A DNA stretch of 64,000 nt from a bacterium. GTDB lineage: Bacteria; Patescibacteriota; Microgenomatia; UBA1400; PJMF01. Shown here one piece after another: positions 5,009 through 46,344 of the stretch (its first letter is position 1; each line of letters begins with the position of its first letter). A program made the position numbers and the translations under genes. The DNA is taken from contig JAFRKQ010000009.1 of NCBI GenBank assembly GCA_017431625.1, positions 11,874-75,873 on the forward strand, given 5' to 3'. Below the pieces are notes generated by a model. That model saw nothing but the letters and a program-made list of their open reading frames with translations, had not been told where the DNA came from and did not search any database.

Positions 5009-6937
5009 ATGACACAGGCGCAAACTGACACGAGCAACAAATTTGATTTGGATTTGGTCATGCCGGCTTTTGATGAGACGCTGGCCGAGCTGGAAAAGTT
5101 GGTGCCACCCACCAAAAAAACCAGAGGTGAAACTATCCATCAGCCAGGACGATGGGACAACCAAATGGAACAACTCCAAGCTCAAATCGAAGAGCTGTCC
5201 AAACAATTGGAAACTCAAAGCCAAGAACTCGCGCAGACGCTCAAAAGCGAGGTTGCTGAGCCCACAAGCAAACCCCAGGCAGACACAGATGCCCATAAAA
5301 ACATTGATAAAAAGGAAAAAAATGCCTCTACCCTGTTGACTCCAGATTTGCAGCCAGATTTCACCAGCAATGTCCAAAACTGGACTGATAATCCTTTCAA
5401 TAGAGACTTTAGTGTCTATCGCGGTCACGCTCAGCCGCCTATCGCCAGTGTCACCCCAGTGTCAGAGACACCCACCAGTGAAGAAAAACCCCTGCCTCCG
5501 GCTACTGATCCCGACCAAACCACTGTCGTGCCTATTCCCGATGGCGAGCTGATGGTTGGCGAGCCGGCCAAGGCTCCAGCCTCTCAGGATCATTGGCACT
5601 TGATGCGACCACGTGTCAGTCCACCTGTACCCACCGAATCAGCACCCGCCCGGACTATGATCACCAAGCACCCCGAGCCAACGCCAGCGAATACAATCAG
5701 TCAAGATCTCCCCCACCGCTCAGACCCGGATCGGCCCACTGCCACGCCCACGCCCGCCACTGATAAGCCCGGTACAGATGAGCCAAAAACCGAAGTTTTA
5801 CAACCAGACATTGTCGAGGCAAACCGCCAAGAGACACCAGTGCCTGTAACTAATATTGCTGGCCTCCAGCATGCCCGCGCGTTGGCCGCCGATGCGCCCA
5901 CTGAGCCCGTCACCCCCACCAAGATCTTAGCCCCACGCGACAGTGAGCCAGAGCCGGCTCCCGTCATTGTTGACCCCAAGGCAGAAACTCCAGTCCCGCC
6001 AGACACCCAAGTTGACAACTCAACTCCAACACCGGCTCAAGAGGTGACGACTACCGACACCGAGTCTGACAAAGCTGACACCTCGACTTTATCCTCCAGT
6101 GATTTTGCGCTCTCGGACGATGAACAGGCAGCCCTAGGTCTCACCGCTGAAGAAAAAAAACTCCTAAAAAAAATGCGCCGCCGCCAGGAAAAAAGGCATT
6201 CGGCCAGTCATGGCGCTTTGGTCGCTCTTTTGTCTTTGCTCATCATCATTGCTTTGGCACTGACCGCTGCCTGGGTATGGTTTGGCGGCGTGGAAAGCGA
6301 GCAGTATGCTAGTGAGGGCCATCACGCGCCCACCCAAACAGTCACCCGTGAGAGCCTCCAACAAATGGTGGCTACACCCGCTTACACTCTCACTTATTAT
6401 CCGGTAGGCAATCAGTCGCTGACAATCGAAATCGTCCACTCCGGTACTAGTACCCTCGTGCGCGATGTCACGATGGGACGGACTTACTTGCAAAAAAATG
6501 GTCAGTTCTACGATCTGGGGCCAGCAGGTCAGACGGCTACTAAGTTGGATCAACCGCCTGCTGGTTTTGACAACTATCTAGTACTCACGCCAGAGATACT
6601 GGGGGCCAAACAAGCCGAGGAGTCTGTTTCTTTGCATGGCCAACTTTATGTTGCTGAAAGTTACGGCGATTACACCGCCTATTTCCAAGAAGGCGACTTG
6701 AAGATCATTGCCCGCCAGACGGCTCAAGGTGAGCCTAGCGAGTATGCCATCCAAACGTTTACCAAAACAGCCGCGCCGGATTTTGATGCCCTGCCTGGAG
6801 AGGCTAGTGAATCAACCGCTCCAGAAAGCACCCAAGCGGCCAGTAATAAAATCAAGCTCGAGACGGTAGCAATTGATATGCCTGAGAATAATGTCATGGG
6901 TGAGCTGGCCGTTGGCCAATACATTGTTTTTGACTAA
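5009..6937 (+). CDS. Pro/Thr-rich low-complexity protein with a central transmembrane helix
   Basis: 642-aa ORF; N-terminal coiled-coil-like QLQAQIEELSKQLETQSQEL; long P/T-rich tracts; TM segment HGALVALLSLLIIIALALTAAWVWFGG. Upstream promoter TTGCAA, 17 bp, TGtgTATAAT at about 4947-4975. Confidence 0.6.
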   Translation: MTQAQTDTSNKFDLDLVMPAFDETLAELEKLVPPTKKTRGETIHQPGRWDNQMEQLQAQIEELSKQLETQSQELAQTLKSEVAEPTSKPQADTDAHKNIDKKEKNASTLLTPDLQPDFTSNVQNWTDNPFNRDFSVYRGHAQPPIASVTPVSETPTSEEKPLPPATDPDQTTVVPIPDGELMVGEPAKAPASQDHWHLMRPRVSPPVPTESAPARTMITKHPEPTPANTISQDLPHRSDPDRPTATPTPATDKPGTDEPKTEVLQPDIVEANRQETPVPVTNIAGLQHARALAADAPTEPVTPTKILAPRDSEPEPAPVIVDPKAETPVPPDTQVDNSTPTPAQEVTTTDTESDKADTSTLSSSDFALSDDEQAALGLTAEEKKLLKKMRRRQEKRHSASHGALVALLSLLIIIALALTAAWVWFGGVESEQYASEGHHAPTQTVTRESLQQMVATPAYTLTYYPVGNQSLTIEIVHSGTSTLVRDVTMGRTYLQKNGQFYDLGPAGQTATKLDQPPAGFDNYLVLTPEILGAKQAEESVSLHGQLYVAESYGDYTAYFQEGDLKIIARQTAQGEPSEYAIQTFTKTAAPDFDALPGEASESTAPESTQAASNKIKLETVAIDMPENNVMGELAVGQYIVFD

Positions 6938-8376: not shown

Positions 8377-10614
8377 TTAACGCTTTTGACTCCGTCTCAA
8401 AGCGACTGCTAGAAGGAGCCAGCACCAAGCGCCCCCGAAAATACCGCAACCGCCGCTACTTGAGCCCACGCCGGTAACGGGCGGATTGGTCGGTACCGAG
8501 GGGGAGTGATCATCGAACTGATCATTGTCAGTGGGTGGTTGCTCGCTGGGCGGGTCATCAGGACTGGGCTGATCATCTGTAGGCTGTTCATCACTGGGTG
8601 GCTGATTGTTGCCAGGATTATCAACTGGCGGATTATCACTGGGTGGCTGCTGGTCGTCACTAGGCTCACCAGGATCGCTGGCACTAGCCAGTCTCAAACC
8701 CCAGCCGGTGGGCAAAAGAGTCTGATCCAGCTGGTAGAGGCCGTCAATAACATCAGGGATAGCGACAGGCAGACGACCACAAAAATCAGCTTGCTGGTCA
8801 TAGAGTTTGTAGATGATCGCTGGCACCAGCGCGCCAAATTTGGGCTGATTGTCGGCAGTCTCAATCGCCGTCGACATGCCATTGGCCAGATATCCCGCCA
8901 GTAAAGCATCCGCTTCACCATAGTAAAGCCCCAGGTCATACGGCAAGTGACAACTCGCAATGATGATTTTCGCTCCTCGTGCCCGCAAAGTCTCAAGCAG
9001 CGGCAGGACAACCTTGATCTCGTCACTGTAAGGTACGGGTGAGTCTGGACTCAATTCCGACTCGTAATACACTGAGCTTAAAATCACTACTGTCTCTACC
9101 TCCTCCAACGTCGTTAACAGATTTTCGTCGTGAACATTCATGACCTTGACCGCTGCTGCTTGCTCCTGAGTTAGCTGACCGGCAGTCACTAGCTGTGCGA
9201 GACCATAGTTCACTGATCTGGTTTGTGAGTTGTAGTAGTGTAAGACCGCGACTTTTTCGTCAGGACTCAGTGGCAAGGCGTTGTCAAGATGATCGACCAG
9301 GGTGATCGCCTCCAGTGCTACTGGCCACTGAATGTCATGATGCTCTTGAGTGCTCACCGTCTGCAAAGCCGTCTGCGCTTGTGTTTGCGCCTGAACATCC
9401 GTAAGGGTGTATGGGGTCAGCAGACCGTGTTTTTGCTTGAAAGTCAAGATTCTAGTCACCGCTGCATCGAGTTTGGTCTGCAAATTAGTATCAGCACTTA
9501 CTTGAGCACCAAAAGTCTCCAGAGCCGTTTTGAAAGCCTCCACACTCGAGGGCTGATTGAGCTCTAGTGAGTAGGGCAAAATATCGACTCCTGCCTCGAG
9601 CGCAAGCTGGAGCACCTGCACAGCCGAGAAATGATGAGTGATCAGGGTGCCCAAAATTGCGTCGGCCACCACCAGACCGTCAAAACCCAATTCTTCGCGC
9701 AAAAGTCCGGTGACAACCGCTGGCGACAGCGAGGCTGGCAAGGTGTATGTCTGATTGTCGGCCGCCTGAAAGGTGCGAGTTTCCAAGCTTGGGTAGCTGG
9801 TGTGAGTCACCATCATCATATCCACCAAGCCCGCCTCAAGACTACGCTTGAAAGGCAAGAGCTCACAGGCATCCATTTGCGCTCGTGTCTTGTCGACAAT
9901 CACGGGTTGGTTGGTGTCATCGGTGTTTTCGCTAGCGCTGCCCATGCCGGGGAAATGTTTGAGACAATTGAGCACTCCTGCCTGGCGTAGACCAGACAAA
10001 TAAGCCTGAGCGTGAGCCGCGACGACATCGGGCGAATCACCAAAAGTGCGCACCACCAGAGACTCAAGACGCGGATTGGTGAGGACATCGGCTAGAGGTG
10101 CCAAATTAACATTGATCCCCAGAGCCTGGATTTCCGTACCCATCATCTGGGCGATCTCCTGAGTATGAGTGGGATTGCCAGTCGCTGCCAGTGCCATCGG
10201 GCTGATACCAGCGGTGGAGCGAGCCAAACGCGCTACCAGACCACCTTCCTGATCTACCATTATAAACAATTGGGGTCGAGTGTCCTGACTGACATTGGCC
10301 TGCTGCAACTGGTGAATCAAAAGTGTGCCGGTATCGTTGGCTGTCAGATTTTCGCCGTAAAGAATGATACCAGCAAAAGGATAAGTGCTGATCAACTGGG
10401 CTACCTCATCATTAAGGACAGTTACGTCATCAGTGGTGCCGCCATTGATTTTGCGATGGGCCGGGACGAGCAGCTGACAGATTTTTTCCTGAGTGGTCAT
10501 TGAGGATAGAATTTCCTCCGGAGTCTGGGCCGCATCCGCCGGTAGAGACGACAACAAAACGAAAGCAAGTGTTACCAATAGAATACGCTTCATGATCGTA
10601 TTTCCTCCTTGCAA
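8377..10614 (-). CDS. secreted glycoside hydrolase family 3 (NagZ-like beta-hexosaminidase/beta-glucosidase) domain protein with Pro-rich linker and a GGC + TM + basic C-terminal tail
   Basis: Signal peptide MKRILLVTLAFVLLSSLPADA; GH3 motifs DQEGGLVARL and KHFPGMGSAS...D; C-terminus GGCGIFGGAWCWLLLAVALRRSQKR. Confidence 0.75.
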   Translation of the reverse strand: MQGGNTIMKRILLVTLAFVLLSSLPADAAQTPEEILSSMTTQEKICQLLVPAHRKINGGTTDDVTVLNDEVAQLISTYPFAGIILYGENLTANDTGTLLIHQLQQANVSQDTRPQLFIMVDQEGGLVARLARSTAGISPMALAATGNPTHTQEIAQMMGTEIQALGINVNLAPLADVLTNPRLESLVVRTFGDSPDVVAAHAQAYLSGLRQAGVLNCLKHFPGMGSASENTDDTNQPVIVDKTRAQMDACELLPFKRSLEAGLVDMMMVTHTSYPSLETRTFQAADNQTYTLPASLSPAVVTGLLREELGFDGLVVADAILGTLITHHFSAVQVLQLALEAGVDILPYSLELNQPSSVEAFKTALETFGAQVSADTNLQTKLDAAVTRILTFKQKHGLLTPYTLTDVQAQTQAQTALQTVSTQEHHDIQWPVALEAITLVDHLDNALPLSPDEKVAVLHYYNSQTRSVNYGLAQLVTAGQLTQEQAAAVKVMNVHDENLLTTLEEVETVVILSSVYYESELSPDSPVPYSDEIKVVLPLLETLRARGAKIIIASCHLPYDLGLYYGEADALLAGYLANGMSTAIETADNQPKFGALVPAIIYKLYDQQADFCGRLPVAIPDVIDGLYQLDQTLLPTGWGLRLASASDPGEPSDDQQPPSDNPPVDNPGNNQPPSDEQPTDDQPSPDDPPSEQPPTDNDQFDDHSPSVPTNPPVTGVGSSSGGCGIFGGAWCWLLLAVALRRSQKR

Positions 10615-26909: not shown

Positions 26910-28865
26910 CTAAAGTTTGGTAATACGAGCAAAGCCATGACCACTTTTAGCACAATCTATTTGGGGATCACTGCTAACGCAGGTATTACTAATTGTATAT
27001 GTTGATTCTTGTTCGGAACTGTCGCAAGCGTAGCAGCTCATATGTTTAGCCGACAAATTCACATTAGCAATATAGCCAGAACCGCCGCCACCGCCATAAT
27101 CAGTACTATTTGTGCTTGCACTACCACCATAATAGCCACCACCACCAGCTCCGGCATTTTTATTATTTCCGCCCTTACCGAATGAACCTGCGTAGCTGCC
27201 AGTAGCGCCACCGGCTGTTTGGCTACCTCCAAAACCAGTATTGCTCGATGATGTGCCACCAATGTAGCCACCACCACTTCCAGCGATATCAGCGCTATCA
27301 TTGGCTGCACCGCCACCCGCAACAATTAAAATGCGATTATCAGTAGCGTGGCTAGACAGTGTTGACAAAACACCCGAATCTAATGCGATGTGCGTCGCAC
27401 CTCCGCCGCCAAACTGTCCAGAACCTCCGCCATTATAGCCACCAGTGCTACCGTTTGCCTTGCCACCAACATTAATATGCAAAACAGTCCCTTGGGTTAA
27501 ATTAATTTTCCCAACTGCGTAGCCGCCATAGCCAGCTTGACCGATACCAGCGCCAACTACTCCAGAAGAAGCATCGGTGTAGCCTTCAGCACCCCAAACT
27601 TCCAGTAAATATATACCGTTGCTAGCAATAGTTAAAGTTTGTTCGCTGCCAGTATAATTATACTCATAAATATTATTGATGTTCACACAAGTGTCAGTGG
27701 AAGGGTTGTATTGATTGCTTCCGGTGCAAGTAGCGATACATTTACCATAAGTACTTGAATACTCATAATTTGTTTTACAGTCACAGGTCATCTTATTAGC
27801 ATTAAATGTGCCATTGTCACCACAAACGGCGATACAGCTGTGATATTGTTCTGACCACTCGTAGCCGTTGGCACAATATTCATGAACGCAACGTACACTC
27901 GCCCCATTGGCTTTATTGAGCTTAGTAATACCAAAACGCACATTGTTATGATAAATACTATTGCTAATAGTTTCACTAACATTAGTAGCTGTCCAATAGT
28001 AATTATATATTGGTTCTTGAGTCAAACCGCCGGTAACTCCTGCTACCCCAGCAGGAATCACTGCATGCCACGAACCACTTTTGGTCCAAAACGTCAAGTC
28101 ACTAGTGATTACACTTAAAGAAACATAATCATCTTTGCTGGGCAAATACCAACCATCAGGACAGATCCCTTTTCGTGGAATACTCGGTTGATAATTCTGT
28201 CCATAATGTGCATTATTATCCTGAACCGCTGCTTGATAACTGTAAAAATTACCTTGTAATGTCCCAGTACCTTCCAAACCATCATCATCGACTGTATCTT
28301 TAGCGGCACGACAATCGCCGTATAAACCATTGGCAATTCTATTACTTACACTGATTGCATTGGCCGCAGTTGTAATACACGTTTCATCCGCATTATATCC
28401 ATAGCCACAATAAAATATTTTATCACAACCAGAATGATATTTAAGATTTGTTGTCATCCAGCATTTGCCATCAGCAAATTTACGGACTTCGTAAGTTTTA
28501 CCATCTCTCTCATCCATAAGACATGGACCACTAGTATAAGCAGTTCCAGTTGGTGTTGTTAAACTTTCGCAATCACCAATTGACCAACGTTGCATTGTTG
28601 TTTGTGGATTTTTACAGCCATATTCTTTAATTGTCATGCAATTATTAGTACTAGAAGCAAATAGCTGTCCGCTTGGACACAGGCTGGTAGCCAAATATTT
28701 ATTGACCCCCACCCTAACAAATTGAATACCACCCACTTGTACCACTTTGCCTACAGCAACATCTTTAAGTTTCATCGTTTGATTGCCCGAAGCAGCGAGC
28801 GTCAATTGCCTTGATAACATGAGAAAAATTGCCGCCAAAAAGACTCGCCCAAGTACTCTGGACAT
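26910..28865 (-). CDS. secreted protein with Fibrobacter-succinogenes-major-paralogous-like domain and a Gly-rich C-terminal region
   Basis: Signal peptide MSRVLGRVFLAAIFLMLSRQLTLAA; DERDGKTYEVRKFADGKCWMTTNLKY, ICPDGWYLPS and NGASVRCV match the Fibrobacter paralogous-domain (TIGR02145-like) pattern; C-terminus GGGGYYGGSASTNSTDYGGGGGSGY. Confidence 0.65.
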   Translation of the reverse strand: MSRVLGRVFLAAIFLMLSRQLTLAASGNQTMKLKDVAVGKVVQVGGIQFVRVGVNKYLATSLCPSGQLFASSTNNCMTIKEYGCKNPQTTMQRWSIGDCESLTTPTGTAYTSGPCLMDERDGKTYEVRKFADGKCWMTTNLKYHSGCDKIFYCGYGYNADETCITTAANAISVSNRIANGLYGDCRAAKDTVDDDGLEGTGTLQGNFYSYQAAVQDNNAHYGQNYQPSIPRKGICPDGWYLPSKDDYVSLSVITSDLTFWTKSGSWHAVIPAGVAGVTGGLTQEPIYNYYWTATNVSETISNSIYHNNVRFGITKLNKANGASVRCVHEYCANGYEWSEQYHSCIAVCGDNGTFNANKMTCDCKTNYEYSSTYGKCIATCTGSNQYNPSTDTCVNINNIYEYNYTGSEQTLTIASNGIYLLEVWGAEGYTDASSGVVGAGIGQAGYGGYAVGKINLTQGTVLHINVGGKANGSTGGYNGGGSGQFGGGGATHIALDSGVLSTLSSHATDNRILIVAGGGAANDSADIAGSGGGYIGGTSSSNTGFGGSQTAGGATGSYAGSFGKGGNNKNAGAGGGGYYGGSASTNSTDYGGGGGSGYIANVNLSAKHMSCYACDSSEQESTYTISNTCVSSDPQIDCAKSGHGFARITKL

Positions 28866-29596: not shown

Positions 29597-29638
29597 GTAG
29601 AGAACAAACTAGCATTTGTTCCCCAGTAGACTAGAGAA
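29597..29638. repeat. 40-bp direct repeat with internal palindrome gaacaaa-ctagca-tttgttc (copy at the 3' end of the ATPase gene)
   Basis: tagagaacaaactagcatttgttccccagtagactagagaag; second copy at 31122-31170. Confidence 0.8.
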
Positions 29639-31085
29639 GTAAAAACATTGACAGCGGCAAATTGACAAACTGTCCACCCGGATCCAACTGCAGTGGCGAC
29701 TGACTAACTGTTATCCCTAGGCTATACTTGAGATTGTGCCGCGCGATGCTAGCCGCTACTTGTTCACTGCCCTTAGTACCGCTACCCACCTCCAGCACCA
29801 AGGCTTGCTGCTTTTCGTGAATATCCACGATGAAGTCAGCACAGTTTTTGGCGGCATCATAGGTGAGAGCATATGAATAACCTCGCCGTGTCAGTAATTT
29901 TGTCAGATACATCGCCATCGTATCTTCACAAACTTTGGCGCGTAGATCGGCTGGTGTCAACGTCGTCCCCAATAAATTCAGATACATCGAGCGAAATGCC
30001 GGCGCAGCAAAGAGATATTTTGACGCCTTGCGTACCTGCACTCCCACATTGCCATACGGTGCCAACCGGTAGATCAAACCAGATAATTCCAGTGTATCCA
30101 GCATTTGTTGCAAGGTGGTGGGACTTAAGCGTAAATCATGGGCAACGTTATCAACGGCTGTAACATCGTTATTGGTAAGCAGATAAATCAATCGGGCAAA
30201 CATATTCAGTGTTGCCGGACTAAAAGTCTGCAGTTGGGCAATATCTTTACCGATGATCGTATCTACGGTCTTTTTTAGCTGATCATAAGCAACTCCAAGA
30301 TTGTGTAACCGCAGCAATGAAGGCAAGGTACCTATTTCCAAATATTTGTTGATCGTAATTTCTTGAGGAAAAGTGGCATAAAAACGACGTACCGGGCCTA
30401 TACAACGCTTAAAATAGTACATCGCCTCCTTCCCAGTGTTGCTACCCAGCAAACCCTCACGCAGCTGCGCTGTCACCTCCAGTGGCAGTGTTTGGCGATG
30501 GATAAGCCGGACGTACTCACGGAAAGATAAAGGATAGATCGTTTCAAAAATCGCCCGCCGACTAATATCTGCATTCGTTTGTAACTGGAGAGCTGCCGAG
30601 CCAGTGGCAGCCACAAACACCCGTCGTGACCGATCATATAAGTTTTTGATAGTTATCGCCCAGTCTGGGTCATATTGCACTTCATCCAAAAAAATGTACA
30701 CTGGCGGCCCGTTTTGGGTAAAACTTTCGCCCAACAGAGTTTCGTAAGCGGCTAACACTTGTCCTAGCGTCACTCCCAATTGGCGTGTCACCTCGTCCAC
30801 CGATAGATAGATTTTGTGCAAAGGAGCAGCTTTGATCTGGTCGAGCAATTGCATAAGCAGTGTCGTTTTGCCCAAGCCCCGCAAGCCACTGATCACCAAC
30901 CACCTCCAGGCAGCATTACCGGCTTCAAAAGCATCCAAGTGCTGTGCCAGGCGGCCATAGACATCGCGGCGTGGCAAGGGTGCGCCAGCATCGTCAGTTG
31001 TGTAATTAACACATCTAGCCGTCAGTTCCATCAGTTGACGTTGTAAATAAGCAGTGAGTTGATTTTGTGTCTCTTGTGTGATCAT
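29631..31085 (-). CDS. AAA+ ATPase (AAA_14/DUF4143-type ATP-binding protein)
   Basis: Walker A VISGLRGLGKTTLL, Walker B IFLDEVQ; visibly more GC-rich than neighbouring cassettes. Confidence 0.75.
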   Translation of the reverse strand: MITQETQNQLTAYLQRQLMELTARCVNYTTDDAGAPLPRRDVYGRLAQHLDAFEAGNAAWRWLVISGLRGLGKTTLLMQLLDQIKAAPLHKIYLSVDEVTRQLGVTLGQVLAAYETLLGESFTQNGPPVYIFLDEVQYDPDWAITIKNLYDRSRRVFVAATGSAALQLQTNADISRRAIFETIYPLSFREYVRLIHRQTLPLEVTAQLREGLLGSNTGKEAMYYFKRCIGPVRRFYATFPQEITINKYLEIGTLPSLLRLHNLGVAYDQLKKTVDTIIGKDIAQLQTFSPATLNMFARLIYLLTNNDVTAVDNVAHDLRLSPTTLQQMLDTLELSGLIYRLAPYGNVGVQVRKASKYLFAAPAFRSMYLNLLGTTLTPADLRAKVCEDTMAMYLTKLLTRRGYSYALTYDAAKNCADFIVDIHEKQQALVLEVGSGTKGSEQVAASIARHNLKYSLGITVSQSPLQLDPGGQFVNLPLSMFLLL

Positions 31086-31170: not shown

Positions 31171-31363
31171 TACGATGGTGCTAATTGCCCTCTGGTGTCA
31201 CCTGCTTGTACATACGATCAGCGCGCAAAATTCTCACTAAAAATGAGACTGGAAACATAACGAGTCTCCTTATACAATAGTATTGTTACAAAGTACTAGA
31301 GAAAAGCCTAAGTTCCAACCTAAAACGCGACACTCAACACTAACATAAGATTATTTAAACAGT

Positions 31364-31455
31364 GTAGACAAAATTTGTACAATTTCACTTTTTTGTTAAA
31401 CGCGTGTTAAACGTGTAACTATGGTTTTTGGTGACAAAAATGTGGTTTTTGTAAT
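31364..31455 (+). repeat. cassette-boundary repeat R7
   Basis: gtagacaaaatttgtacaatttcacttttttgttaaacgcgtgttaaacgtgtaactatggtttttggtgacaaaaatgtggtttttg. Confidence 0.9.
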
Positions 31456-31540
31456 TTATGGCAGTGGTTAATTTTACCAAAAACAATTGGCCTCATTAAA
31501 TACTTTTGTTAGTTGACACACACGACAGTGTCGCGATATT

Positions 31541-33405: not shown

Positions 33406-34434
33406 ATGCAAAATATAGCACTTGAGCACATCCATACTAAAAATATCGTTGACGACGCCCGGCAAATCATTCAAACAGCTCGGGCTAATGCCACTAGAAG
33501 CATTGACTTTAATCGCGTGCAAATGTATTGGTGTTTAGGTCGGCGAATTTTTGAGGAAGAACAACAAGGCAAAGACCGGGCAAATTACGGCACATATCTA
33601 ATAAAAAAGCTTGCTAATTCCTTAGAAAAGGAGTACGGTAGCGGTTTTTCCGAACGGCAATTAAAATTTTGTCGTCAGTTTTACCGACTTTACCCAATTG
33701 GGAACGCAGTGCGTTCCCAATTGAATTGGACTCAATATCGTTTGTTAATCCAAATTTCTGACCCCGACAAACGTGAGTATTACGAACTCGAGTCGGTCAA
33801 CAATTCCTGGACAGCTCGAGAAACAGAAAGACAAATTAACAGTCAACTTTACGAGCGACTTCTTCTGAGCAATGATAAAGAATCTGTTTTGGCGATCGCC
33901 AGAAAAGAACGCCTTCCTGATAGACCGCAAGAGGTGATTAAAGACCCAATGGTGTTAGAGTTTTTAGGACTTGATCGTCAAGCCTCTTACTACGAAAAAG
34001 ATTTAGAAAGCGCGATTATTTCGCATCTAACTGATTTTTTGTTAGAAATGGGCAAAGGTTTTTGTTTTGTAGCGCGCCAAAAAAGAATCATCATAGAGGA
34101 TGACGAGTTTTTCATCGATTTGGTTTTGTACAATCGATTACTTAGATGTTTTGTCATTGTGGAACTCAAAACTGGAAAACTTACTCACCAAGATCTCGGA
34201 CAGCTACAAATGTATGTCAACTACTATGACCGCCAAGAAAAACTACCACAAGAAAATGACACTATTGGTGTCTTACTCGGGACAAGCAAAAATGACACCG
34301 CAGTCAAAATGACTTTACCAAAAGACAATCAAACAATTATGACTGGTGAATACCAGCTTTATTTGCCAAGTACTGAGCAATTGGCGAAAGCAGTCGAAGA
34401 AGTCAAGCAATTAGCGCAGTTCAGTTTTATGTAG
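33406..34434 (+). CDS. YhcG-like protein (DUF1016 N-terminal domain plus PD-(D/E)XK nuclease-like C-terminal domain), copy 1
   Basis: GKGFCFVARQKRIIIEDDEFFIDLVLYNRLLRCFVIVELKTGKLTHQDLGQLQMYVNYYD is the D...E.K core typical of the YhcG family; stop codon supplied by R9 (atgTAGacaaaa). Confidence 0.75.
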   Translation: MQNIALEHIHTKNIVDDARQIIQTARANATRSIDFNRVQMYWCLGRRIFEEEQQGKDRANYGTYLIKKLANSLEKEYGSGFSERQLKFCRQFYRLYPIGNAVRSQLNWTQYRLLIQISDPDKREYYELESVNNSWTARETERQINSQLYERLLLSNDKESVLAIARKERLPDRPQEVIKDPMVLEFLGLDRQASYYEKDLESAIISHLTDFLLEMGKGFCFVARQKRIIIEDDEFFIDLVLYNRLLRCFVIVELKTGKLTHQDLGQLQMYVNYYDRQEKLPQENDTIGVLLGTSKNDTAVKMTLPKDNQTIMTGEYQLYLPSTEQLAKAVEEVKQLAQFSFM

Positions 34435-36086: not shown

Positions 36087-36501
36087 TGTTGCGTTCCCTT
36101 TATTTTCAATTCTCAGTCTACAGCTGTTGGGGTAAACTCTGACAGGAAGTCCACAACCCAACTGCTTGAGGTTAATTATAGCATGATTGGGGAGTTTTTG
36201 AGGAAGAGTATTTAAAGCTACTATGGGCAAATATTTGAGTTAAGTAAAAAAACGTGGGGTTTTACATTATTTTTGGCGGTATATACGTAAAATTGGCATT
36301 ATTTTGCACTTTTTGAGTGCTAAATCTCGATATTTACCAGTGTTTAAACAAAAAAGTGCAGTTTTATCTGTGTGAGATTTTATTTAACTCACCTTTATTG
36401 AACAATTTTTGTGTTCAAGTGTGAGACATGTTAGTTTACCCTACGAAAGAAATATCGTGAATCTGCATGCAAATTTGACACAATTATAGTCATGATATAT
36501 A

Positions 36502-37764
36502 ATGAAAAAAATGAAGAACAGTCAATTATTAAGTAAAAATTTTCGATTTCTTGTGTTTTTGTTTATTCTCGCTACTTTAATTTCCATGATGTATTTATAC
36601 TATCACCATAATTTCTACGTTAATAACAAAGAAGCTGAGATAACGATGACAGAAGTTGCCGAAGCGTCACTACCACATTACATGTCAGATCAACCTAATG
36701 CAGCTGATGAAGATCAGGGAAACAGATTTGGTTTGGGCGTAGTTGGCTTCATTTTTGATAATTATCTGTTTACAACTTTTGATAATGATATCGTAAGAAT
36801 CAATCTCAGTGCTCAAGAGTTGGAAAGTCAGGAACATCTTACTCTTGATTTTTGGAATAACTTGTTACAAGACGAAAGATTTACTGCACGTATACCTTAT
36901 CATATTAATTCGGATACAAATGATGAGATTGTTTTGAGCAATGGGCACGGCAGCATCATCGCGCAAAGAATAATTAATCTTGGCAATAATGGTGAAGAAG
37001 GATTTACTGGCCATGGAATAATGCTGCAAAAAGATTCTGGATTATATATTGACATTATAAACGATCAAGGTCTGCACTCACTCTATCACTTAGCTTACGG
37101 TGGTGCTAATCCTCTTCTTTTGAGCGATCAAATTTCAGGACAGCACCCTTTAATCACTGAAAAAAGAATCGGTGATGAAATCGCAATTTTGTTCACTTAT
37201 CGAGACCGTCGCTTGGAAGACAAGTTTCCTGAAGAAACACACAATGCTTATCTGTATTTACCCACTGAAAAGAAATTTGTCGTGCTATTTGAATTTTATG
37301 ATTTTATTGGGCAAGATGCGCAAGGAAATATATATGCCCGCGAACCAAACTCAGGTAAAATTTACCAATGGCAATTAGACATGTCAGATCATGATGTGCG
37401 TATAAACTATTGGTCGACTGCGCTTCCAAAAAGCATGAATGCACATAGTTGGGATTCTGATTATAGATTGGTCAATAATACTATGTACTTCCTTTCTGAT
37501 GATAAAAAAATGTACATCATCTCGTTGGAAAATCGAGAAATGAAACTCCTTTACAATTTTAATGATTTTTTTACCAACCATAAATACAATATTGATAATT
37601 GGTATGTTGAGCGAATTAAAGATGGTCGGTTTGGGATTTGTTTGTGTAGCTTTGAGCATATGAATGAAAACAATCAAAACAGCTTTTATGATCTCAATAC
37701 TCGCGAATTTATCGAAGACATTGACGACTGTTTTGGCCACGCGCACGCTTGGTTTTGTGGTTAA
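36502..37764 (+). CDS. hypothetical signal-anchored protein
   Basis: 420-aa ORF; N-terminal TM FRFLVFLFILATLISMMYLYY; no known domain. Confidence 0.5.
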   Translation: MKKMKNSQLLSKNFRFLVFLFILATLISMMYLYYHHNFYVNNKEAEITMTEVAEASLPHYMSDQPNAADEDQGNRFGLGVVGFIFDNYLFTTFDNDIVRINLSAQELESQEHLTLDFWNNLLQDERFTARIPYHINSDTNDEIVLSNGHGSIIAQRIINLGNNGEEGFTGHGIMLQKDSGLYIDIINDQGLHSLYHLAYGGANPLLLSDQISGQHPLITEKRIGDEIAILFTYRDRRLEDKFPEETHNAYLYLPTEKKFVVLFEFYDFIGQDAQGNIYAREPNSGKIYQWQLDMSDHDVRINYWSTALPKSMNAHSWDSDYRLVNNTMYFLSDDKKMYIISLENREMKLLYNFNDFFTNHKYNIDNWYVERIKDGRFGICLCSFEHMNENNQNSFYDLNTREFIEDIDDCFGHAHAWFCG

Positions 37765-37970: not shown

Positions 37971-38400
37971 TCAGGGTGTATTTCCTAGGAGGCACCGAAC
38001 TGAGAAGCCACCCCACTTCGCACATGCACCCGTGTAGCTGAAATGATCACCACGAGCGTCCATGATGTAAGCGCCTGAATTGGAAGTTCTTTCATTAGTA
38101 GAAGACCACCATTGTGAATGTTTGTCCTGATAATACACCATGCTGGAATTTGCACCACCGCCGGTACCAGCGAGAGTACTCTTACCAGTGGCATTCCAAG
38201 GACTGGGTGCCTCACTAACGTTATCATCACCAGTGCCACCAGTTTTAGTCACACGGAAAAATTTTTTTTGAGAGTTAACTGCGTCAGCAAGTCGATACCA
38301 TTCACTAGCATTAGAGTCCGTGGGCACATGCCAGCCCAGTGGACAGATATCGTGAGTGGCCAGTCTTTCTTGTAAGCTAGCACTATCACCAGCATTGGTA
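37971..38400 (-). pseudogene. 5'-truncated fragment of a Fibrobacter-paralogous-domain protein gene
   Basis: Encodes ...CPLGWHVPTDSNASEWYRL...WGGFSVRCLLGN, the C-terminal half of the domain, but has an upstream in-frame stop and no signal peptide; followed 3' by the conserved cgaaacgaaataagaaaagtagtaagactgcaaa module. Confidence 0.5.
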
Positions 38401-39990: not shown

Positions 39991-40177
39991 TGAATGACAA
40001 CTTTTTCAAGATCTTTCAAGATTAAGTTCATAGTCAAGCTTGGCGCCAAGTTCTCAATTTAATCAACAGCCAATTGTGTTTTTAATTACTGAGTATACAC
40101 ACGTTATAGCCACGTCGTAGCCACTCATCGCGATTTACAATTATTTTTGGTAATTTCTCCACAAGTTGTGGAGAAAA

Positions 40178-40320
40178 CTGGCGGGAGATCCGAGCCCAGT
40201 TACTAGAGGTTGATTATAACATGATTAAGAAGTTTTTACAGCGGGAAAGTGTGTGGAAGTAATTATCAAATGATTAATTACTATAGGTATTGACAAAAAA
40301 TTTAATTTGTGATAAAGTGG
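40178..40320 (+). repeat. upstream module copy 1 (3' 80 bp of the conserved small ORF plus TTGACA promoter), identical over 70 bp to copy 2
   Basis: tggcgggagatccgagcccagttactagaggttgattataacatgattaagaagtttttacagcgggaaa shared with 42116-42186. Confidence 0.8.
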
Positions 40321-40324
40321 ATAT

Positions 40325-41413
40325 ATGTTAAACAAGAGGAATCAAATTATAACAAACACTGAGGCTGTAAACTTCACTATTGATGAGTCTGGATTATATG
40401 CAATTACTATTATCGCTCGATGTGAAAAAACACAGGAGCTGAGAATTGAAGTTGATAGCCAATATTTTAGAGAAATCAACCCAAGTAAATATGTCCAAAA
40501 ATACAAAATTCCACCTTCTTGGAATGGAAATTCGCTTTTGGGTGCCGCACAAATAAACATTTTTATTGTTAATTTAAACAAGGGTAAACATTCTCTGTCT
40601 TTCATTCCTAAAGGCCAAGCAGAAATAATTAATTGGAATTATTCGTCAATAAATAAAGATAAATCCGAGTTTGCATTTAATTTACAATCTGAGTATCGTA
40701 ATATCCAGCCATGGATAAATTTTATTCTTGTTGACATGCCCCTGGACTCAATAGTAGCAACAGCTACCACTTCATGGTATTGGCATGACGGAGACGATTT
40801 ACAGCTGAAAATTGATGGAAGAATAAGGCAAGGTAAGCACAGTGAAAAGAATAAAAACTGGCTCTGGCACGCTTTATGCGGAATGAGTGATAGATCGCAA
40901 ACTTTTGATTTAATGACTCATCTACACAAAGGGCGACATACGATAGAATTCATTGCCGATGGCAAACCAACATTACACAATGTGACATTACGTTTTTTTG
41001 GTGATAAACATAAAGAACTTAGTTTTAGAGAAAAAATGATTGACGAGTCCGTTAGACGTGAATTCCCAAATGCTCAGAAGCTTGATTGCTATACAGAATA
41101 CTATGGAGTTAAAAACAAACCAGCTCTAATAATTTATAACGGTGGCGAAGAGCCAAAAGCAACAGACTATCGTGTCTATTATTGGATTAATCCCGGGTGG
41201 ATACCAATTTATTTGTATGATAAAAACCATAAAAGTGAAACCAAATTTGATCTAGGCATTAATATTGAACGCCCACAGCCAGATGGCGCCCAACCTCTAC
41301 CTGAGGGTTGGCTAGCTTTTAATATAGGCACCACACTGCGAGTGCTCTATACTCCTTTTGATATTTGGGATTGGAATGACGATACTCGCTGGGCAGTATA
41401 TAAAGTAAAATAA
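40325..41413 (+). CDS. hypothetical protein with two internal repeated beta-rich domains
   Basis: ELRIEVDSQYF...KGKHSLSFIPKGQAEI and LQLKIDGRI...KGRHTIEFIADGKPTL repeat; no signal peptide. Confidence 0.5.
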   Translation: MLNKRNQIITNTEAVNFTIDESGLYAITIIARCEKTQELRIEVDSQYFREINPSKYVQKYKIPPSWNGNSLLGAAQINIFIVNLNKGKHSLSFIPKGQAEIINWNYSSINKDKSEFAFNLQSEYRNIQPWINFILVDMPLDSIVATATTSWYWHDGDDLQLKIDGRIRQGKHSEKNKNWLWHALCGMSDRSQTFDLMTHLHKGRHTIEFIADGKPTLHNVTLRFFGDKHKELSFREKMIDESVRREFPNAQKLDCYTEYYGVKNKPALIIYNGGEEPKATDYRVYYWINPGWIPIYLYDKNHKSETKFDLGINIERPQPDGAQPLPEGWLAFNIGTTLRVLYTPFDIWDWNDDTRWAVYKVK

Positions 41414-41417
41414 ATTT

Positions 41418-41855
41418 ATGCAAGTCGATTGGTATTGGGTGAGTGCATTGCCCACAGCAATGTGGAGTGCGGTGGCATATTTGCCATTTGTTATGATCTG
41501 TTTTGCCAATTCATTGATATTGCCTTTGCCGTGGCAAATTAAAACATCTGGTAAGAAAATTTGCTACTTGGGTTGGTTATTATTTGCAATGATGACAACT
41601 GCATTTCAAACGGGAATGTGTTTATTAACTTTTAGAGAAAGTGATTGGACGCTTGATGAGAAATTATGCATTTATTTTAATCTAGTAGTCTTTGACATTG
41701 TAATATCCTACATGATATTAATGTTTGTATGTTTGATTTTCAAACAGTTTAGAAAAACAAGATTATTAAAAATAATCATTAGATTCTTAACTTATTTAAT
41801 TTGTTGGTGGGGCGTACTTGAATTGTTTATATTACCAAGCCTAATAAATCATTGA
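41418..41855 (+). CDS. hypothetical 4-TM membrane protein
   Basis: 145-aa hydrophobic ORF 4 bp after the preceding gene; palindromic stem ccagaca-c-tgtctgg at 41873-41888 downstream. Confidence 0.45.
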   Translation: MQVDWYWVSALPTAMWSAVAYLPFVMICFANSLILPLPWQIKTSGKKICYLGWLLFAMMTTAFQTGMCLLTFRESDWTLDEKLCIYFNLVVFDIVISYMILMFVCLIFKQFRKTRLLKIIIRFLTYLICWWGVLELFILPSLINH

Positions 41856-42027
41856 ATGCTTTAACTTAATTTTCCAGACACTGTCTGGCGAATTATTTGT
41901 GGTCCCAGTGTTAAATTTACTTGACACACCATTTCGTTAGTATACGCCGGTATTTGTGAAACACAATGCCGCAAGCAATTAATATACCCTCTATATATTA
42001 ATGCAAACTAAAAAAATGACCAACTCT

Positions 42028-42259
42028 CAAAAACCTTTGCTCGAACCCGACAAAAACCTTGATCAATCAGATAATAATTCGTCAAATTCTGGAGAAAATC
42101 CTCTCAGGGGTGATCTCTGGCGGGAGATCCGAGCCCAGTTACTAGAGGTTGATTATAACATGATTAAGAAGTTTTTACAGCGGGAAAATATGTGACAATA
42201 ATTGTCAAATAATTTATTATTATAGGTATTGACAAGAAAGTCATAGTGTGGTATAAATA
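42028..42259 (+). repeat. upstream module copy 2: conserved small ORF (42001-42195) plus TTGACA...TGgTATAAAT promoter
   Basis: Aligns with 43608-43848; encoded peptide ...NPLRGDLWREIRAQLLEVDYNMIKKFLQRENM versus ...NPLRGDFWLKVRTQLLEVDYSMIREFLKREML. Confidence 0.75.
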
Positions 42260-43430
42260 ATGTCTATTAAATATAAGAAAGACAAAATGACCAAACAATT
42301 AAAATCGCTGACGATTTTGGACAAAGATTACATTAGTTGGATCGATGAATTATCTTCTCGTTATCGCCAAAGTCAAGTAAAAGCAGCAGTTAAGGTCAAC
42401 ACTGAAATGCTGCGGTTTTACTATGATTTGGGGAAAGACATTGTTACTCTCAAAGCTGAAAGCAAATGGGGCAGCGGTTTCATGAAAAATTTGAGCCACG
42501 ACCTGAAACTTAAAAATCCAAGTGCTGCATGTTTTTCTTTGGTTAATTTACACTATATGAAGAATTTTTACTTGCTATATCACTCATTAATAGATTTTTC
42601 TTCCAAAAATGATGAAGAGCTTGTGAATACTCTAATTGTTCAGCAACTTGCTGAACAATTAGATCAGGCAGACTTTTTCCAGCAAGTTGCTGAAAAAATT
42701 AAAAGTGACATCTTTTCGACCCCTTGGGGTCATCATATGATTTTGATTGATAAATTTAAATCAGAACCAAATAAAGCTCTGTTTTTTGTCCATCAGACGG
42801 TAGACAATGGTTGGAGCCGTGACATGCTACTTAATTTTATTGATACCGATCTATACGAAAGGCAAGGGAAAGCGCTGACGAATTTCAAGAGAACCCTGCC
42901 AGACGTCAATAGTGATTTGGCACAAGAAATCACCAAAGATCCATATAATTTTGCTTTTACTGGTATTACCAATAAATACAATGAGCGTAAACTGAAAGAT
43001 ACTTTATTAACCAATATCGCTCAGTTTTTGATTGAACTTGGCACTGGTTTTGCCTATGTGGGCAAAGAGTATCGGCTGCAAATTGGTGACACTGAAAAGT
43101 TTGTTGATTTGCTTTTTTACAATCTGAGTCTATCTTGTTATGTTGTGATTGAAGTTAAGATTGGCAAATTTGATTTTGCCGATTTAGGACAACTTGGTGG
43201 TTACGTAGTTTCATGTAATAGGTCGTGATAACCCTACCATTGGCCTTTTGATTTGTAAACAAAAAGATAATATAGTGGCTCAATATGCACTCGAGTCTAG
43301 TAGCCAGCCTTTAGGGATTTCTGAATACGAATTACAGAAATTGTATCCAGAAAAAGTTGAAGGAACGGTACCGACAATTGAGGAGATAGAAAAGAAATTA
43401 AAAGAAAATAACAATGATTACGATAAATGA
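42260..43430 (+). pseudogene. YhcG-like (DUF1016/PD-(D/E)XK) gene, copy 2, frameshifted near 43215
   Basis: Frame 1 ends ...FADLGQLGGYVVSCNRS*; the +1 frame continues GRDNPTIGLLICKQKDNIVAQYAL..., matching the intact copy 43849-44952. Confidence 0.6.
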
Positions 43431-43607
43431 ATGATTCTATGTCTCAAAAATATGATTTCAGTCAAACACATGGAGAGTTGAATCCAACTTTGCCGACAAA
43501 AGGTTTTACTAATGAACAAATAGAATCCGGCAACATGATAATCAAATCGACTTCCAGAGACAATGAAAAGTAATGTAATTCTATGTCAAATAAGCCACCA
43601 TCTATCG

Positions 43608-43848
43608 CCCAAACCCTTGCTCAAACCCACTCAAAACCTTGATCAATCAGATAATAATTCGTCAAATTCTGAAGAAAATCCTCTAAGGGGTGACTTCTGG
43701 TTGAAAGTCCGCACCCAGTTACTTGAGGTTGATTATAGCATGATTAGGGAGTTTTTGAAACGGGAAATGTTGTAACAACATATATCAAATAATAATTCGT
43801 TATAAGTATTGACAATAAAGTCATAGTGTGGTATAAATAATTCTAATT
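43608..43848 (+). repeat. upstream module copy 3: small ORF 43563-43775 plus promoter
   Basis: See 42028-42259. Confidence 0.75.
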
Positions 43849-44952
43849 ATGTCGACAGAGCAACGAAAGAAAGTGGGCAAATCAATACAGGCAAATGGCA
43901 GTGGAGCGATTTTCCCTATTGCTGAAAATCGTAAAGATATGCCGTCTGGTTATGAACATTTTATCCAAGAAATCATTTCTGATATTAAGCAACAGAAAGT
44001 AAAAACATTCTTAAATGCCAATACCGACATGATTTGTTTATATTGGAGAATTGGTAAACGAGTTTTAGAAAAACAGAATAAAGAGGGTTGGGGCGCTAAA
44101 GTGATAGACCGCATGGCTGTTGATTTAAAAGAGCAATTTCCAAATTCCCATGGATTTTCTCCGCGTAATATCAAATACATGCGTAAATTTGCTCAAACTT
44201 ATCCAGACATTAAATTTGTGCAACGGGTCGTTGCACAAATTCCTTGGCGAACGAATATAAGCCTAATGGAAAAATTGCATGATCAAGATAGTCGTCAGTG
44301 GTATGCTCAAAAGACTTTGGAAAATGGTTGGAGTCAAACAATTCTTGAACTACAAATTGACAGTAGGTTAATTGATAGAGAAGGTAAAACTGTTAATAAT
44401 TTCGCCAAAGCATTGCCAACGCCTGATTCTGATTTAGTTAATTATGTCTTCAAAGACCCATATATTTTTGACTTTTTAGGTACTGATGCTCCACGCCGAG
44501 AACTTGAAGTTGAGCAAGAATTAACAGAGCATATCCAAAAGTTTTTGTTAGAGCTGGGGCAAGGATTTGCTTTTGTGGGTCGTCAAGTCCACTTAGAAAT
44601 TGGCGACCATGACTTTTATCTTGATTTGTTATTCTATCACCTTAAGTTACGTTGCTATGTTGTTATCGAGTTGAAAGCCTGTGAATTTCAACCAGAATTT
44701 ATCAGTCAACTGAGTTTTTATCAAAACGTCGTTAATGACCTTTTGCGATCCCCAGAAGACAAACCAACAATTGGTTTACTGTTAGTTAAAGGCAAAAACA
44801 AAACCGTAGTTGAATACTCTCTAGAAGGATACACCAATCCCATTGGAATAGCTGATTGGAATGAAAAAATACCTGCTGCTATTCCTAATGATATTACTAG
44901 TAGTTTGCCAACCATTGAACAGATAGAGAGAGAATTGAATAGCGAGAAATAA
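43849..44952 (+). CDS. YhcG-like protein (DUF1016 plus PD-(D/E)XK nuclease-like), copy 3, intact
   Basis: GQGFAFVGRQVHLEIGDHDFYLDLLFYHLKLRCYVVIELKACEFQPEFISQLSFY. Confidence 0.75.
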   Translation: MSTEQRKKVGKSIQANGSGAIFPIAENRKDMPSGYEHFIQEIISDIKQQKVKTFLNANTDMICLYWRIGKRVLEKQNKEGWGAKVIDRMAVDLKEQFPNSHGFSPRNIKYMRKFAQTYPDIKFVQRVVAQIPWRTNISLMEKLHDQDSRQWYAQKTLENGWSQTILELQIDSRLIDREGKTVNNFAKALPTPDSDLVNYVFKDPYIFDFLGTDAPRRELEVEQELTEHIQKFLLELGQGFAFVGRQVHLEIGDHDFYLDLLFYHLKLRCYVVIELKACEFQPEFISQLSFYQNVVNDLLRSPEDKPTIGLLLVKGKNKTVVEYSLEGYTNPIGIADWNEKIPAAIPNDITSSLPTIEQIERELNSEK

Positions 44953-45420: not shown

Positions 45421-45490
45421 AGTTCTGGCACTCGTTGCACTAATTCGAAAAATGGGGTTGAGTGTTCTTTTTGTTGATGACATGTTTTCC

Positions 45491-46141
45491 TCAAGCAAAT
45501 TCATCAATTTGTTCTTGTAAGTGTTTGAACACCAAAGCCACTAAATAACCATCAGCAATCGCGTGATTAAGTCGGACTGTCACCGGCATCAGCAACTGGC
45601 CGCTTTCTTCTCGATACTTACCCCAATTCACGATAGGCGGGAAAAATAAGTGTCCGTCTGGCAATTCCAAGTGAAGCGCATCATAAGACAACCATGGAAT
45701 AAACGAGGCGTCAAACCAATTGGGATGATTGGTCATATCTAATCCGTATTCTCTGGTGTGTTTGGCTCGTTCCACATCGCGCAAAGCAGCTGAGTAAAAT
45801 TTTTCATAATTCTCATAGTATCTTGTATACACGGGCGTGCAAGTTTCCGTGTCCTCATGAAACACATATTGAGTCGGATTAATGACGTCATAGCAGATTA
45901 GTTCATTAGTTTCGTACAGAAAACTCATTTTATAATCGTCACGAGAATTGAGGACTTTACAAAGCAGATAGAGGAAGTTGATGTAAAACTTTGTATGAGT
46001 TTTTTGAGAGTATTGTACTAGCGGTGTGACATTTATCTTTGCGGTTATGCTGATAGAGCACTTGCAATCTTGAGTAAAATGGCGATAAACGCCAGCGCGG
46101 TAGTATTTTTGCGGGTCAATAGTTTTGTAGTTTTTTGACAT
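45491..46141 (-). CDS. chloramphenicol-acetyltransferase-family (type A CAT-like) acetyltransferase
   Basis: 216 aa; [26 protein letters not shown]...[21 protein letters not shown] parallels CAT [26 protein letters not shown]...[37 protein letters not shown] parallels the catalytic LMPLAIQVHHAVCDGF. Confidence 0.75.
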   Translation of the reverse strand: [216 protein letters not shown]

Positions 46142-46179
46142 ACATCAACATTCCTGTCAACTGACGAGTATTCTCTGGT

Positions 46180-46255
<76 letters not shown>

Positions 46256-46344
46256 ATCTCAAAAAGCAGACAAGTGTATTATACCACAAAAACCATCATT
46301 TTAGCTGACATTTTTTACTGTTCACAAAATTTACTCAATAACAT

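Follow-up and report, generated by a model that had tools for sequence, protein, structure and literature searches.

Promoter-bearing repeat modules 3' of tRNA-His in a Patescibacteria genome as probable junctions of a decayed array of serine-recombinase islets

Patescibacteria (candidate phyla radiation, CPR) have very small genomes, and how accessory and anti-phage genes reach them is poorly understood. A locus that raises this question lies in a stretch of 64,000 nucleotides (contig JAFRKQ010000009.1 of assembly GCA_017431625.1, positions 11,874 to 75,873 of the forward strand; the whole stretch is hereafter called the window), where a short module with its own promoter is repeated in front of different genes, two of them members of the YhcG/DUF1016 family. 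What placed the same upstream sequence before such dissimilar genes? A preceding sequence-only reading had listed three copies of the module (40178-40320, 42028-42259 and 43608-43848), each described as a conserved small open reading frame (ORF) plus a promoter, and had taken the place for an actively duplicating locus. All three copies were recovered by blastn and a repeat search, which added a fourth, partial one; the four are designated c0-c3. We consider that these modules are probably the junctions of neighbouring degraded integrative islets stacked 3' of tRNA-His, and we infer that the array arose by site-specific integration.

The repeat itself is directly observed at the DNA level and exceeds chance by a wide margin. 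Copy c2 (42031-42269) is 84% identical to c3 (43611-43850) over ~233 nt, the homology beginning at 43611 on the c3 side; c1 (40178-40300) is 92% identical to c2 over 123 nt, and the partial copy c0, situated upstream of the gene at 36502, is 87% identical to c3 over 55 nt. According to the scheme preferred here, each junction would be composed of four parts. The first would be the last 24-39 codons of the large serine recombinase gene of the older islet, and the second a degenerate piece of ~30 nt from the acceptor 3' strand and T-arm of tRNA-His, that is, a displaced fragment of the target or a remnant of the attachment (att) site. A conserved arm of ~49 nt from the distal end of the next islet would follow, and then a sigma-70-type promoter (TTGACA, 17 nt, TGTGG-TATAAA) directed, with almost no leader, into the first cargo gene of this next islet. 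An original islet would accordingly have comprised the arm, the promoter, one or two defence genes and a serine recombinase gene that stopped at the tRNA 3' end. Such islets would have been inserted successively at tRNA-His, and their recombinase genes would later have been lost through deletions, while a TGA-to-TGG change and a 3-nt insertion would have extended the recombinase frame through the tRNA fragment and the arm into an apparent ORF of 64-70 aa. The present-day modules probably act as portable promoters for the defence gene behind each of them and supply homology for gene conversion or cassette exchange.

The first of these parts is recognised by its homology to a recombinase tail. 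Residues 1-37 of the ORF in c2 correspond to the last 37 residues of a large serine recombinase encoded by a related contig, L008 (51% identity, E 8e-10), and c3 matches the same C-terminus over 24 residues; the L008 product (P0004) carries Resolvase PF00239 and Recombinase PF07508 in its precomputed Pfam annotation. Searched by tblastn with all recombinase pieces, the window yields only two relics, 41995-42111 and 43620-43691, which are truncated at different points. No recombinase was found elsewhere in the window or in L005, a metagenome-assembled genome (MAG) of Patescibacteria with related modules. The domains of large serine recombinases (Resolvase, Recombinase, zinc ribbon) are seen in the relatives L008 and L006, not in the window, and the recombinase fragments of L006 give weak Pfam matches to Resolvase (E 0.003) and Zn_ribbon_recom (E 0.007). 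On L006 and on a second JGI contig, L007, the module immediately follows the recombinase gene at its 3' end and is itself immediately followed by a GmrSD restriction gene. As for the remaining copies in the window, the tail relic of c1 (~40135-40177) is barely recognisable and has an 18-nt deletion relative to c2, and c0 has neither the relic nor a start codon nor the module promoter and retains TGA, the stop codon of the recombinase in L008. The relics of c2 and c3 had been placed in a different frame because of a chance 'GCTCGAACCC' match to L006; this was ruled out, since the L008 tail runs in the same frame and L006 has a deletion of ~60 nt.

The contiguity of the tail with tRNA-His is directly visible in L008, where the recombinase ORF reaches ten bases into the 3' end of tRNA-His (6671-6746, minus strand) and stops at 6680. 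Local DNA alignments of this segment (tail plus tRNA 3' end) with c2, c3 and L006 reach scores of 43-56 against a shuffle maximum of 22-26, and they extend from the recombinase tail into the acceptor strand and T-stem of the tRNA (TGGGTG, a gap of three positions and TCTGACGGGA in L008 versus GGGGTGATCTCTGGCGGGA in c2). Between the L008 tRNA-His 3' end and the cores of L006 and L005b, the second core of L005, the alignment covers 22 of 24 tRNA positions and has three small gaps (p ~0.002-0.01). Based on these alignments, one can assume that the ~30-nt piece is derived from tRNA-His. The similarity stops after CGAACCC (T-loop/T-stem), and comparison of the ~49-nt arm with the rest of tRNA-His gave mostly z < 1.5; three comparisons with the L005 tRNA had nominal p values of 0.01-0.02. 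The tRNA-like part therefore appears limited to ~30 nt. A full-length pseudo-tRNA spanning the whole core had been suggested by MAFFT, and the c0 9-mer CCACAACCC matches the anticodon stem; this candidate was rejected, the arm being devoid of consistent tRNA-His similarity.

The setting of the modules agrees with their assignment to a tRNA-associated island. All four cores (starting at 36129, 40178, 42107 and 43687) lie on the plus strand, with the tRNA-like piece in reverse complement, so that they are co-oriented with the resident tRNA-His and stand on its 3' side. The GC content is 34-39% across 31-46 kb and ~47% in the flanks, and the low-GC stretch ends at tRNA-His. Its defence-type genes are three YhcG genes (PADLOC PDC-S02), an AAA_14/DUF4143 ATPase (PDC-S01) and a 48-codon relic of Shedu SduA. 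Among species-representative genomes the module was met only in L005, and its two cores, L005a and L005b, bear the same relation to the tRNA-His of that genome. The unit formed there by L005a, YhcG, an intact SduA and L005b is orthologous to c2, YhcG2, the SduA relic and c3 of the window. Because the c2-c3 segment has such an ortholog bounded by two cores, the unit between two cores behaves as a discrete element common to two genomes. Some cores have no promoter (c0, L005b) and some have no recombinase tail (c0, L005a, L005b), which marks the ~80-nt core as the basic repeated unit, as expected of an att-type sequence. Gene content differs among the window, L005 and a further contig, L002.

Table 1. 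Positions of the modules, cargo genes and tRNA-His neighbourhood in the window
Feature	Position	Strand	Remarks
Module c0, core only	36129-36203	+	tRNA-His-like 3' fragment 36129-36161; arm 36162-36203
Module c1	40135-40318	+	tRNA-like fragment 40178-40199; arm 40200-40248; promoter
Module c2	41995-42257	+	recombinase relic, last 39 codons, 41995-42111; tRNA-His-like 3' fragment 42107-42138; arm 42139-42187; promoter
Module c3	43611-43837	+	recombinase relic, last ~24 codons, 43620-43691; tRNA-His-like fragment 43687-43718; arm 43719-43767; promoter
YhcG/DUF1016 copy 1 (YhcG1)	33406-34434	+	intact, 342 aa; Pfam
YhcG/DUF1016 (PADLOC PDC-S02) copy 2 (YhcG2), pseudogene	42260-43430	+	42260-43228 plus 43248-43430; Pfam
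YhcG/DUF1016 (PDC-S02) copy 3 (YhcG3)	43849-44952	+	intact, 367 aa; start 12 nt past -10 box
Shedu SduA relic, first 43-48 codons	43427-43573	+	56% identical to N-terminus of the intact 392-aa SduA of L005; rest deleted
Cargo behind c1	40325-41855	+	362-aa hypothetical 40325-41413; 145-aa membrane-like ORF 41418-41855
CatA-like O-acetyltransferase (family 3)	45491-46141	-	immediately downstream of tRNA-His
Resident tRNA-His (GTG)	46180-46254	-	3' end faces island

Several points weigh against serial integration. It is known that serine integrases normally do not reuse hybrid att sites, and successive insertion would have to assume a relaxed specificity like that of CcrAB. No intact recombinase was found in any locus examined, those of L006 and L008 both being pseudogenised, so that activity can only be presumed. 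Short and degenerate as it is, the tRNA-like piece gave only noise with the Rfam tRNA model (c2 and L006, E up to 10), and, taken alone, it is not significant in c1, c3 and L002 (p 0.3-0.66) and borderline in c2 (p 0.05). It does not match the 3' end of the window's own tRNA-His, no exact displaced copy of that end is present in the window, and the tRNA-His of L008 is matched better than the resident one. A 3-nt insertion relative to real tRNA-His is common to all module copies (c1, which lacks this stretch, cannot be scored), and TGA has become TGG in all of them except c0. These shared derived features suggest descent from one ancestral junction rather than independent displacements, and the common indel fits a single junction spread by recombination at least as well as it fits separate displacements. 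The sample is also small, ~8 copies of the module from 4-5 genomes or strains. A scan of genome contigs returned one locus (L005), and scans of metagenomes (with a protein pattern and with a DNA pattern of the recombinase tail) and of viral contigs revealed no further copies. The source of the window is a gut or ruminant metagenome, and contigs identical or nearly identical to it occur in ENA and Logan assemblies; L001-L004 and L016-L018 display the integrated arrangement only, and the arrangement of the window recurs in the contigs sampled for c1-cassette variants.

The alternative that survives best, although we regard it as unlikely, dispenses with repeated integrations. It supposes that a portable promoter/leader cassette spread within the island by homologous recombination or gene conversion from a single ancestral junction, the recombinase tail and the tRNA fragment being hitch-hiking relics of that junction. 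Besides the derived insertion and the TGG codon, the behaviour of the copies themselves speaks for exchange. In c1 and c2, 71 consecutive bases are identical (40178-40248 and 42117-42187); to the right of them identity drops at once to ~75%, and the left flank is unalignable. It is because of these two boundaries that the patch looks like the product of short gene conversion, of which it is typical, and not like a fresh duplication; the 70 identical base pairs noted earlier are real. Copy c2 shares 84% identity with c3 but only 73% with L005a, its ortholog by position. Finally, in L002 an identical YhcG3 is preceded by a different allele of the module, with the switch point inside the promoter spacer. 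The identical patch and the allele switch together point to recombination or gene conversion between module copies. Spreading from one junction is, however, at odds with the relics, which retain 39 codons in c2 and ~24 in c3, so that at least two longer recombinase copies must once have existed; the cores devoid of promoter or of recombinase tail are also better explained by an att-like core than by a promoter cassette. In L002 a run of N at 575-650 marks a scaffold gap just to the left of the module allele, and beyond it lies a GC-rich gene related to window 8756-8901. If this scaffold join is real, L002 would represent a strain without most of the array; the gap makes this unreliable.

It is quite improbable, in our estimate, that the ~80-bp core, composed of a half-site derived from tRNA-His and the arm, is together with its built-in promoter the functional recombination site of a still-active, integron-like cassette platform of Patescibacteria, based on a serine recombinase. 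In such a platform a recombinase supplied in trans, from another islet or strain, would capture, stack and reshuffle single defence genes beside tRNA-His, and each captured gene would be expressed at once from the junction promoter.

The cargo allows duplication of the locus to be judged. All three YhcG genes, members of the PD-(D/E)XK nucleases, carry DUF1016_N and YhcG_C above the Pfam gathering thresholds (split in copy 2) and match PADLOC PDC-S02, in agreement with the earlier reading, which had an intact third copy and a further YhcG at 33406. It had also noticed a frameshift in copy 2 at 43215. Compared with the intact ortholog in L005 (7617-8744, 73% amino-acid identity), copy 2 has lost 16 nt near 43219, and an independent assembly, L001, calls the same truncated product of 322 aa; the break is therefore not an assembly error of the window. 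The cargo differs from unit to unit: the 362-aa and 145-aa ORFs follow c1, YhcG2 and SduA follow c2, YhcG3 follows c3, and in L006 the cargo is GmrSD. The hypothetical cargo genes at 36502, 38761, 40325 and 41418 gave nothing above threshold in Pfam, NCBIfam, PADLOC or PHROGs, the 40325 protein having one weak, sub-threshold CBM-like Pfam match only; the hypothetical cargo proteins of 420 aa and 409 aa are not paralogs.

Homologs of YhcG are numerous, with more than 7,800 at E <= 1e-60. More than 100 homologs of YhcG2 are 73-82% identical to it, some of them annotated as Treponema or Lachnospiraceae, and in seven neighbourhoods (L009-L015) homologs at ~80% are located between hsdR and hsdS of type I restriction-modification (R-M) operons, with no module nearby. 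The possibility that the module travels with YhcG was ruled out on these grounds. Since its close homologs occupy such operons in other organisms, YhcG2 of Patescibacteria appears to be a recently imported gene that now stands alone behind a module promoter. Amino-acid identity is only 32% between YhcG2 and YhcG3 and 30% between YhcG1 and YhcG3, compared with 84% DNA identity of the modules; the YhcG genes thus seem to have been acquired separately, and only their junctions are alike. A recent tandem duplication of the upstream region together with a YhcG gene, followed by divergence and decay, is for these reasons very unlikely, even though three YhcG paralogs lie within 12 kb, c2 and c3 each precede one of them and c1 shares its 71-bp patch with c2. 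It would leave unexplained the contrast between genes and upstream DNA, the unrelated gene behind c1, the absence of YhcG behind c0 and of a module before YhcG1, and the separate acquisitions indicated by the L005 ortholog and the R-M homologs. Active duplication, as initially proposed for the locus, was not borne out: gene and module identities disagree, the relics are cut differently, and the c2-c3 unit has its ortholog in L005.

Other genes of the island and its surroundings deserve mention. The AAA_14/DUF4143 ATPase gene (29631-31085, minus strand; PADLOC PDC-S01 match) is situated at the left edge of the low-GC island. A 118-aa ORF at 37971-38327 (minus strand) has a weak FISUMP / Fib_succ_major match; the full domain is found in a 651-aa protein at 26910-28865 (minus strand), where it is accompanied by an ALK/LTK glycine-rich domain. 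Within the c0-c1 unit the 118-aa ORF may represent a gene fragment. In L008 (1377-6746) an MmeI-family type IIL restriction-modification gene and a DUF6338 gene stand ahead of the pseudogenised recombinase beside tRNA-His and appear to be another defence cargo on the same element family.

The small ORF, which the sequence-only reading had regarded as either a real small protein or a recombined gene tail, is resolved by the recombinase homology in favour of the second. An ORF of 64 aa is present in c2 (42001-42195) and one of 70 aa in c3 (43563-43775), and in these two copies only; in c0, c1 and L005b the corresponding frame lacks a start codon (ATG, GTG or TTG), and in L006 it continues into the promoter. 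The ORF at 42001-42195 is a read-through of the recombinase relic, the tRNA-like fragment and the arm. Compared with L008, the modules differ by the 3-nt insertion and by TGG in place of the TGA stop codon of the recombinase; the '...WREIRxQLLEVDY...' peptide arises because these two changes let the recombinase frame read on. The small ORF, as judged from its composition, does not appear to be a gene: its N-terminal part is a recombinase tail and the rest would be a read-through over a degenerate tRNA-His 3' fragment and non-coding DNA of the element end.

Measures of coding constraint are in line with this. Differences between c2 and c3 are distributed over codon positions 1/2/3 as 11/6/10, and the minimum number of changes per position among seven distinct core copies is 13/9/11. 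With few sites and limited power, the dN/dS ratio between c2 and c3 is 0.41 in the ORF frame and 0.38 in the stop-filled +1 frame. Identity of c2 and c3 is 83% inside the ORF and likewise 83% after its stop codon. Thus the peptide alignment presented earlier is accurate, whereas the preference for synonymous and conservative changes read from it is not found. Pfam gave no match to either ORF. A profile search of 5.8 billion proteins returned only P0001 and P0002, both encoded by the module's own copies, and exhaustive HMMER comparison with 1.84 billion cluster representatives added two repeat-protein artefacts. In metagenome assemblies, by exact-sequence look-up, gene callers had not called the small ORF; in one MAG the NCBI annotation had called a 59-aa product (P0001). 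That the ORF encodes a genuine small protein, for instance a regulator or antitoxin encoded ahead of the nuclease genes or co-transcribed with them, is in view of this highly improbable. The ATG-started open frames of c2 and c3, the annotated P0001 and a peptide core, QLLEVDY(N/S)MI..FL, retained in seven of eight copies (QLFETDYNSM in L005a) would suit it, but the copies without a start codon, the N-terminal half taken from a recombinase, the even spread over codon positions, equal dN/dS values and equal identity on both sides of the stop codon, and the lack of a Pfam match or of homologs among the 1.84 billion representatives would not. What the earlier reading had named as refuting a small protein, no conservation in other genomes and no trace of selection, is thus what the data show, and the claim of a conserved protein has to be given up.

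The promoter, on the other hand, answers at the level of sequence consensus to what had been said of it, a signal feeding different genes. TTGACA with a 17-nt spacer is present in c1, c2 and c3, at a distance of ~40 nt from the arm. In c2 (42229-42257) and c3 (43809-43837) the -10 box is TATAAA preceded by TGTGG, the -35 and -10 hexamers occupying 42229-42234 and 42252-42257 in the former and 43809-43814 and 43832-43837 in the latter; in c1 TTGACA (40290-40295) is combined with TAAAGT (40313-40318), with TG before it. The tRNA-His promoter of the same genome carries the same TGTGGTATAAT box. The module promoter is presumably active. Start codons of the cargo follow the -10 box after 2-12 nt, and at four sites (36475-36511, 40290-40325, 42229-42260 and 43809-43849) the box is close to the annotated start or overlaps it, which suggests that the mRNAs of the island genes may be leaderless or nearly so. 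Since a perfect TTGACA-17-TATAAT at 36475-36503 overlaps the ATG at 36502, the real start of this gene is probably the ATG at 36511. A signal of opposite polarity was also noticed: read in reverse complement, the best-conserved part of the core forms an extended -10 element, TG(C/T)TATAAT, pointing toward the tRNA fragment and recombinase tail (43732-43759 in the window, with equivalents in c0-c2, L005b and L006); the promoter scan flagged it in c3 only.

For the tRNA-like piece, Rfam at gathering thresholds registered only the three true tRNAs, and ARAGORN found nothing in the modules. That the core is a structured RNA (riboswitch, small RNA, tRNA-like element) or gives rise to an antisense transcript from the minus-strand TG-n-TATAAT box is hardly credible: ~75 nt of non-coding sequence are conserved and their reverse complement contains TGCTATAAT or TGTTATAAT, but single-sequence folds gave z-scores of -0.76 to +0.57 on both strands, Rfam had no match on c2 and L006 even at E up to 10, the copies have no inverted repeat in common, and the core, being upstream of the plus-strand promoter, is not part of the cargo mRNA.

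The surroundings of the array may bear traces of other mobile units. YhcG1, which has no module upstream, is flanked by two copies of an unrelated repeat of ~95 nt, D2 (e.g. 31363-31457; consensus ...TGTAGACAAAATTTGTACAATTTCACTTTTTTGTTAAACGCGTGTTAAACGTGTACATCTGGTTTTTGGTGACAAAAATGGTGTTTTTGT), centred at 16881, 20042, 21319, 22125, 23903, 26694, 29426/29437, 31393, 33110, 34460 and 46349. All 12 occurrences of its 21-nt core, against 0.04 expected by chance, are on the plus strand. D2 fills 9 of the 12 intergenic gaps between 16.9 and 34.5 kb regardless of gene orientation, one copy lies ~95 nt upstream of tRNA-His, and the D2-free gap of 34.5-46.3 kb is exactly where c0-c3 are located. Neither covariation-supported RNA structure nor an Rfam match nor a match in viral contigs was found for D2, and neither L005 nor L008 contains it. 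The repeat may delimit cassettes of a second type or serve as a polar DNA-binding site. On the tRNA side, an 811-nt block with the promoter, tRNA-His and the catA-like gene is 96.7% identical between the window (45483-46292) and L005 (14686-15492) and has unrelated sequence on both sides. Because other proteins shared by the window and L005 are only 60-73% identical, this suggests a recent horizontal exchange of a tRNA-His-cat mini-cassette, so that the 'target' tRNA may itself be mobile.

The locus suggests one route by which Patescibacteria may gain defence genes: very small serine-recombinase islets, each with one or two such genes and its own promoter, would be stacked beside tRNA-His and then eroded, a route that mirrors the staphylococcal cassette chromosome (SCC) elements and the Dehalococcoides ssrA islands of other phyla. 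For annotation it teaches that a 'conserved small ORF plus promoter' before different genes can be the scar of an att junction, made of a recombinase tail and a tRNA fragment, and the core sequence could be used to mark cassette limits in related MAGs. The finding is a modest one, a known mechanism in a new host and at a new target, with all copies seen so far decayed.

The closest precedent is provided by the ssrA islands of Dehalococcoides (ssrA-GIs; McMurdie et al. 2011). These are arranged in tandem; a CcrB-like serine recombinase adjoins attL, the 3' end of the target is directly repeated, integration falls in the T-loop, the sequence around the repeats is conserved, and islands without integration genes are described as 'accretion' (PMC3146451). 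The likeness to the locus described here extends to low-GC islands downstream of a single t(m)RNA gene with strain-specific cargo, to additional conservation around the repeats and to islands deprived of integration genes; on the reading preferred here it would also include repetition of the gene's 3' end, insertion in the T-loop/T-arm region and a large serine recombinase at the target-proximal att site. In contrast to ssrA-GIs, the target is tRNA-His and the host is gut Patescibacteria; the units comprise one or two defence genes with a built-in promoter instead of a 6-gene integration module with rdhA cargo; the repeat is degenerate, ~80 nt including the element-derived arm, instead of exact and 20 bp; and every recombinase copy is a relic or pseudogene.

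Composite islands of SCCmec and other SCC elements are formed by the large serine recombinases CcrAB/CcrC at rlmH. They, too, are serine-recombinase elements stacked at one site, with copies of the target 3' end between units and many recombinase-less remnants, but their target is protein-coding, their cargo consists of resistance genes, their units measure 20-60 kb and no conserved outward promoter is present in the junction. In tRNA and tmRNA islands of the Islander type a displaced t(m)RNA fragment marks the far end of the island (PMC4383910). The position of the island 3' of the tRNA gene and the co-orientation of the fragment with this gene are the same here; those islands, however, nearly all use tyrosine integrases and their fragment matches the resident tRNA, while here it is degenerate and matches poorly. 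Integron cassette arrays resemble the locus in having promoter-dependent accessory genes in series, separated by a repeat of one orientation that is similar to a recombination site. They differ in that an integron has one Pc promoter and here each junction has its own, and in the serine type of the associated recombinase; no tyrosine-recombinase domain was detected by Pfam in the 28 window ORFs scanned, a non-exhaustive set, and the modules contain no attC-like palindrome or conserved inverted repeat. That serine-recombinase islands accrete in tandem at t(m)RNA genes is known; the locus probably extends this structure to a CPR host and to tRNA-His, and it differs from the known kind in the unusually small size of its units, in their defence cargo and in the promoter carried by each junction.

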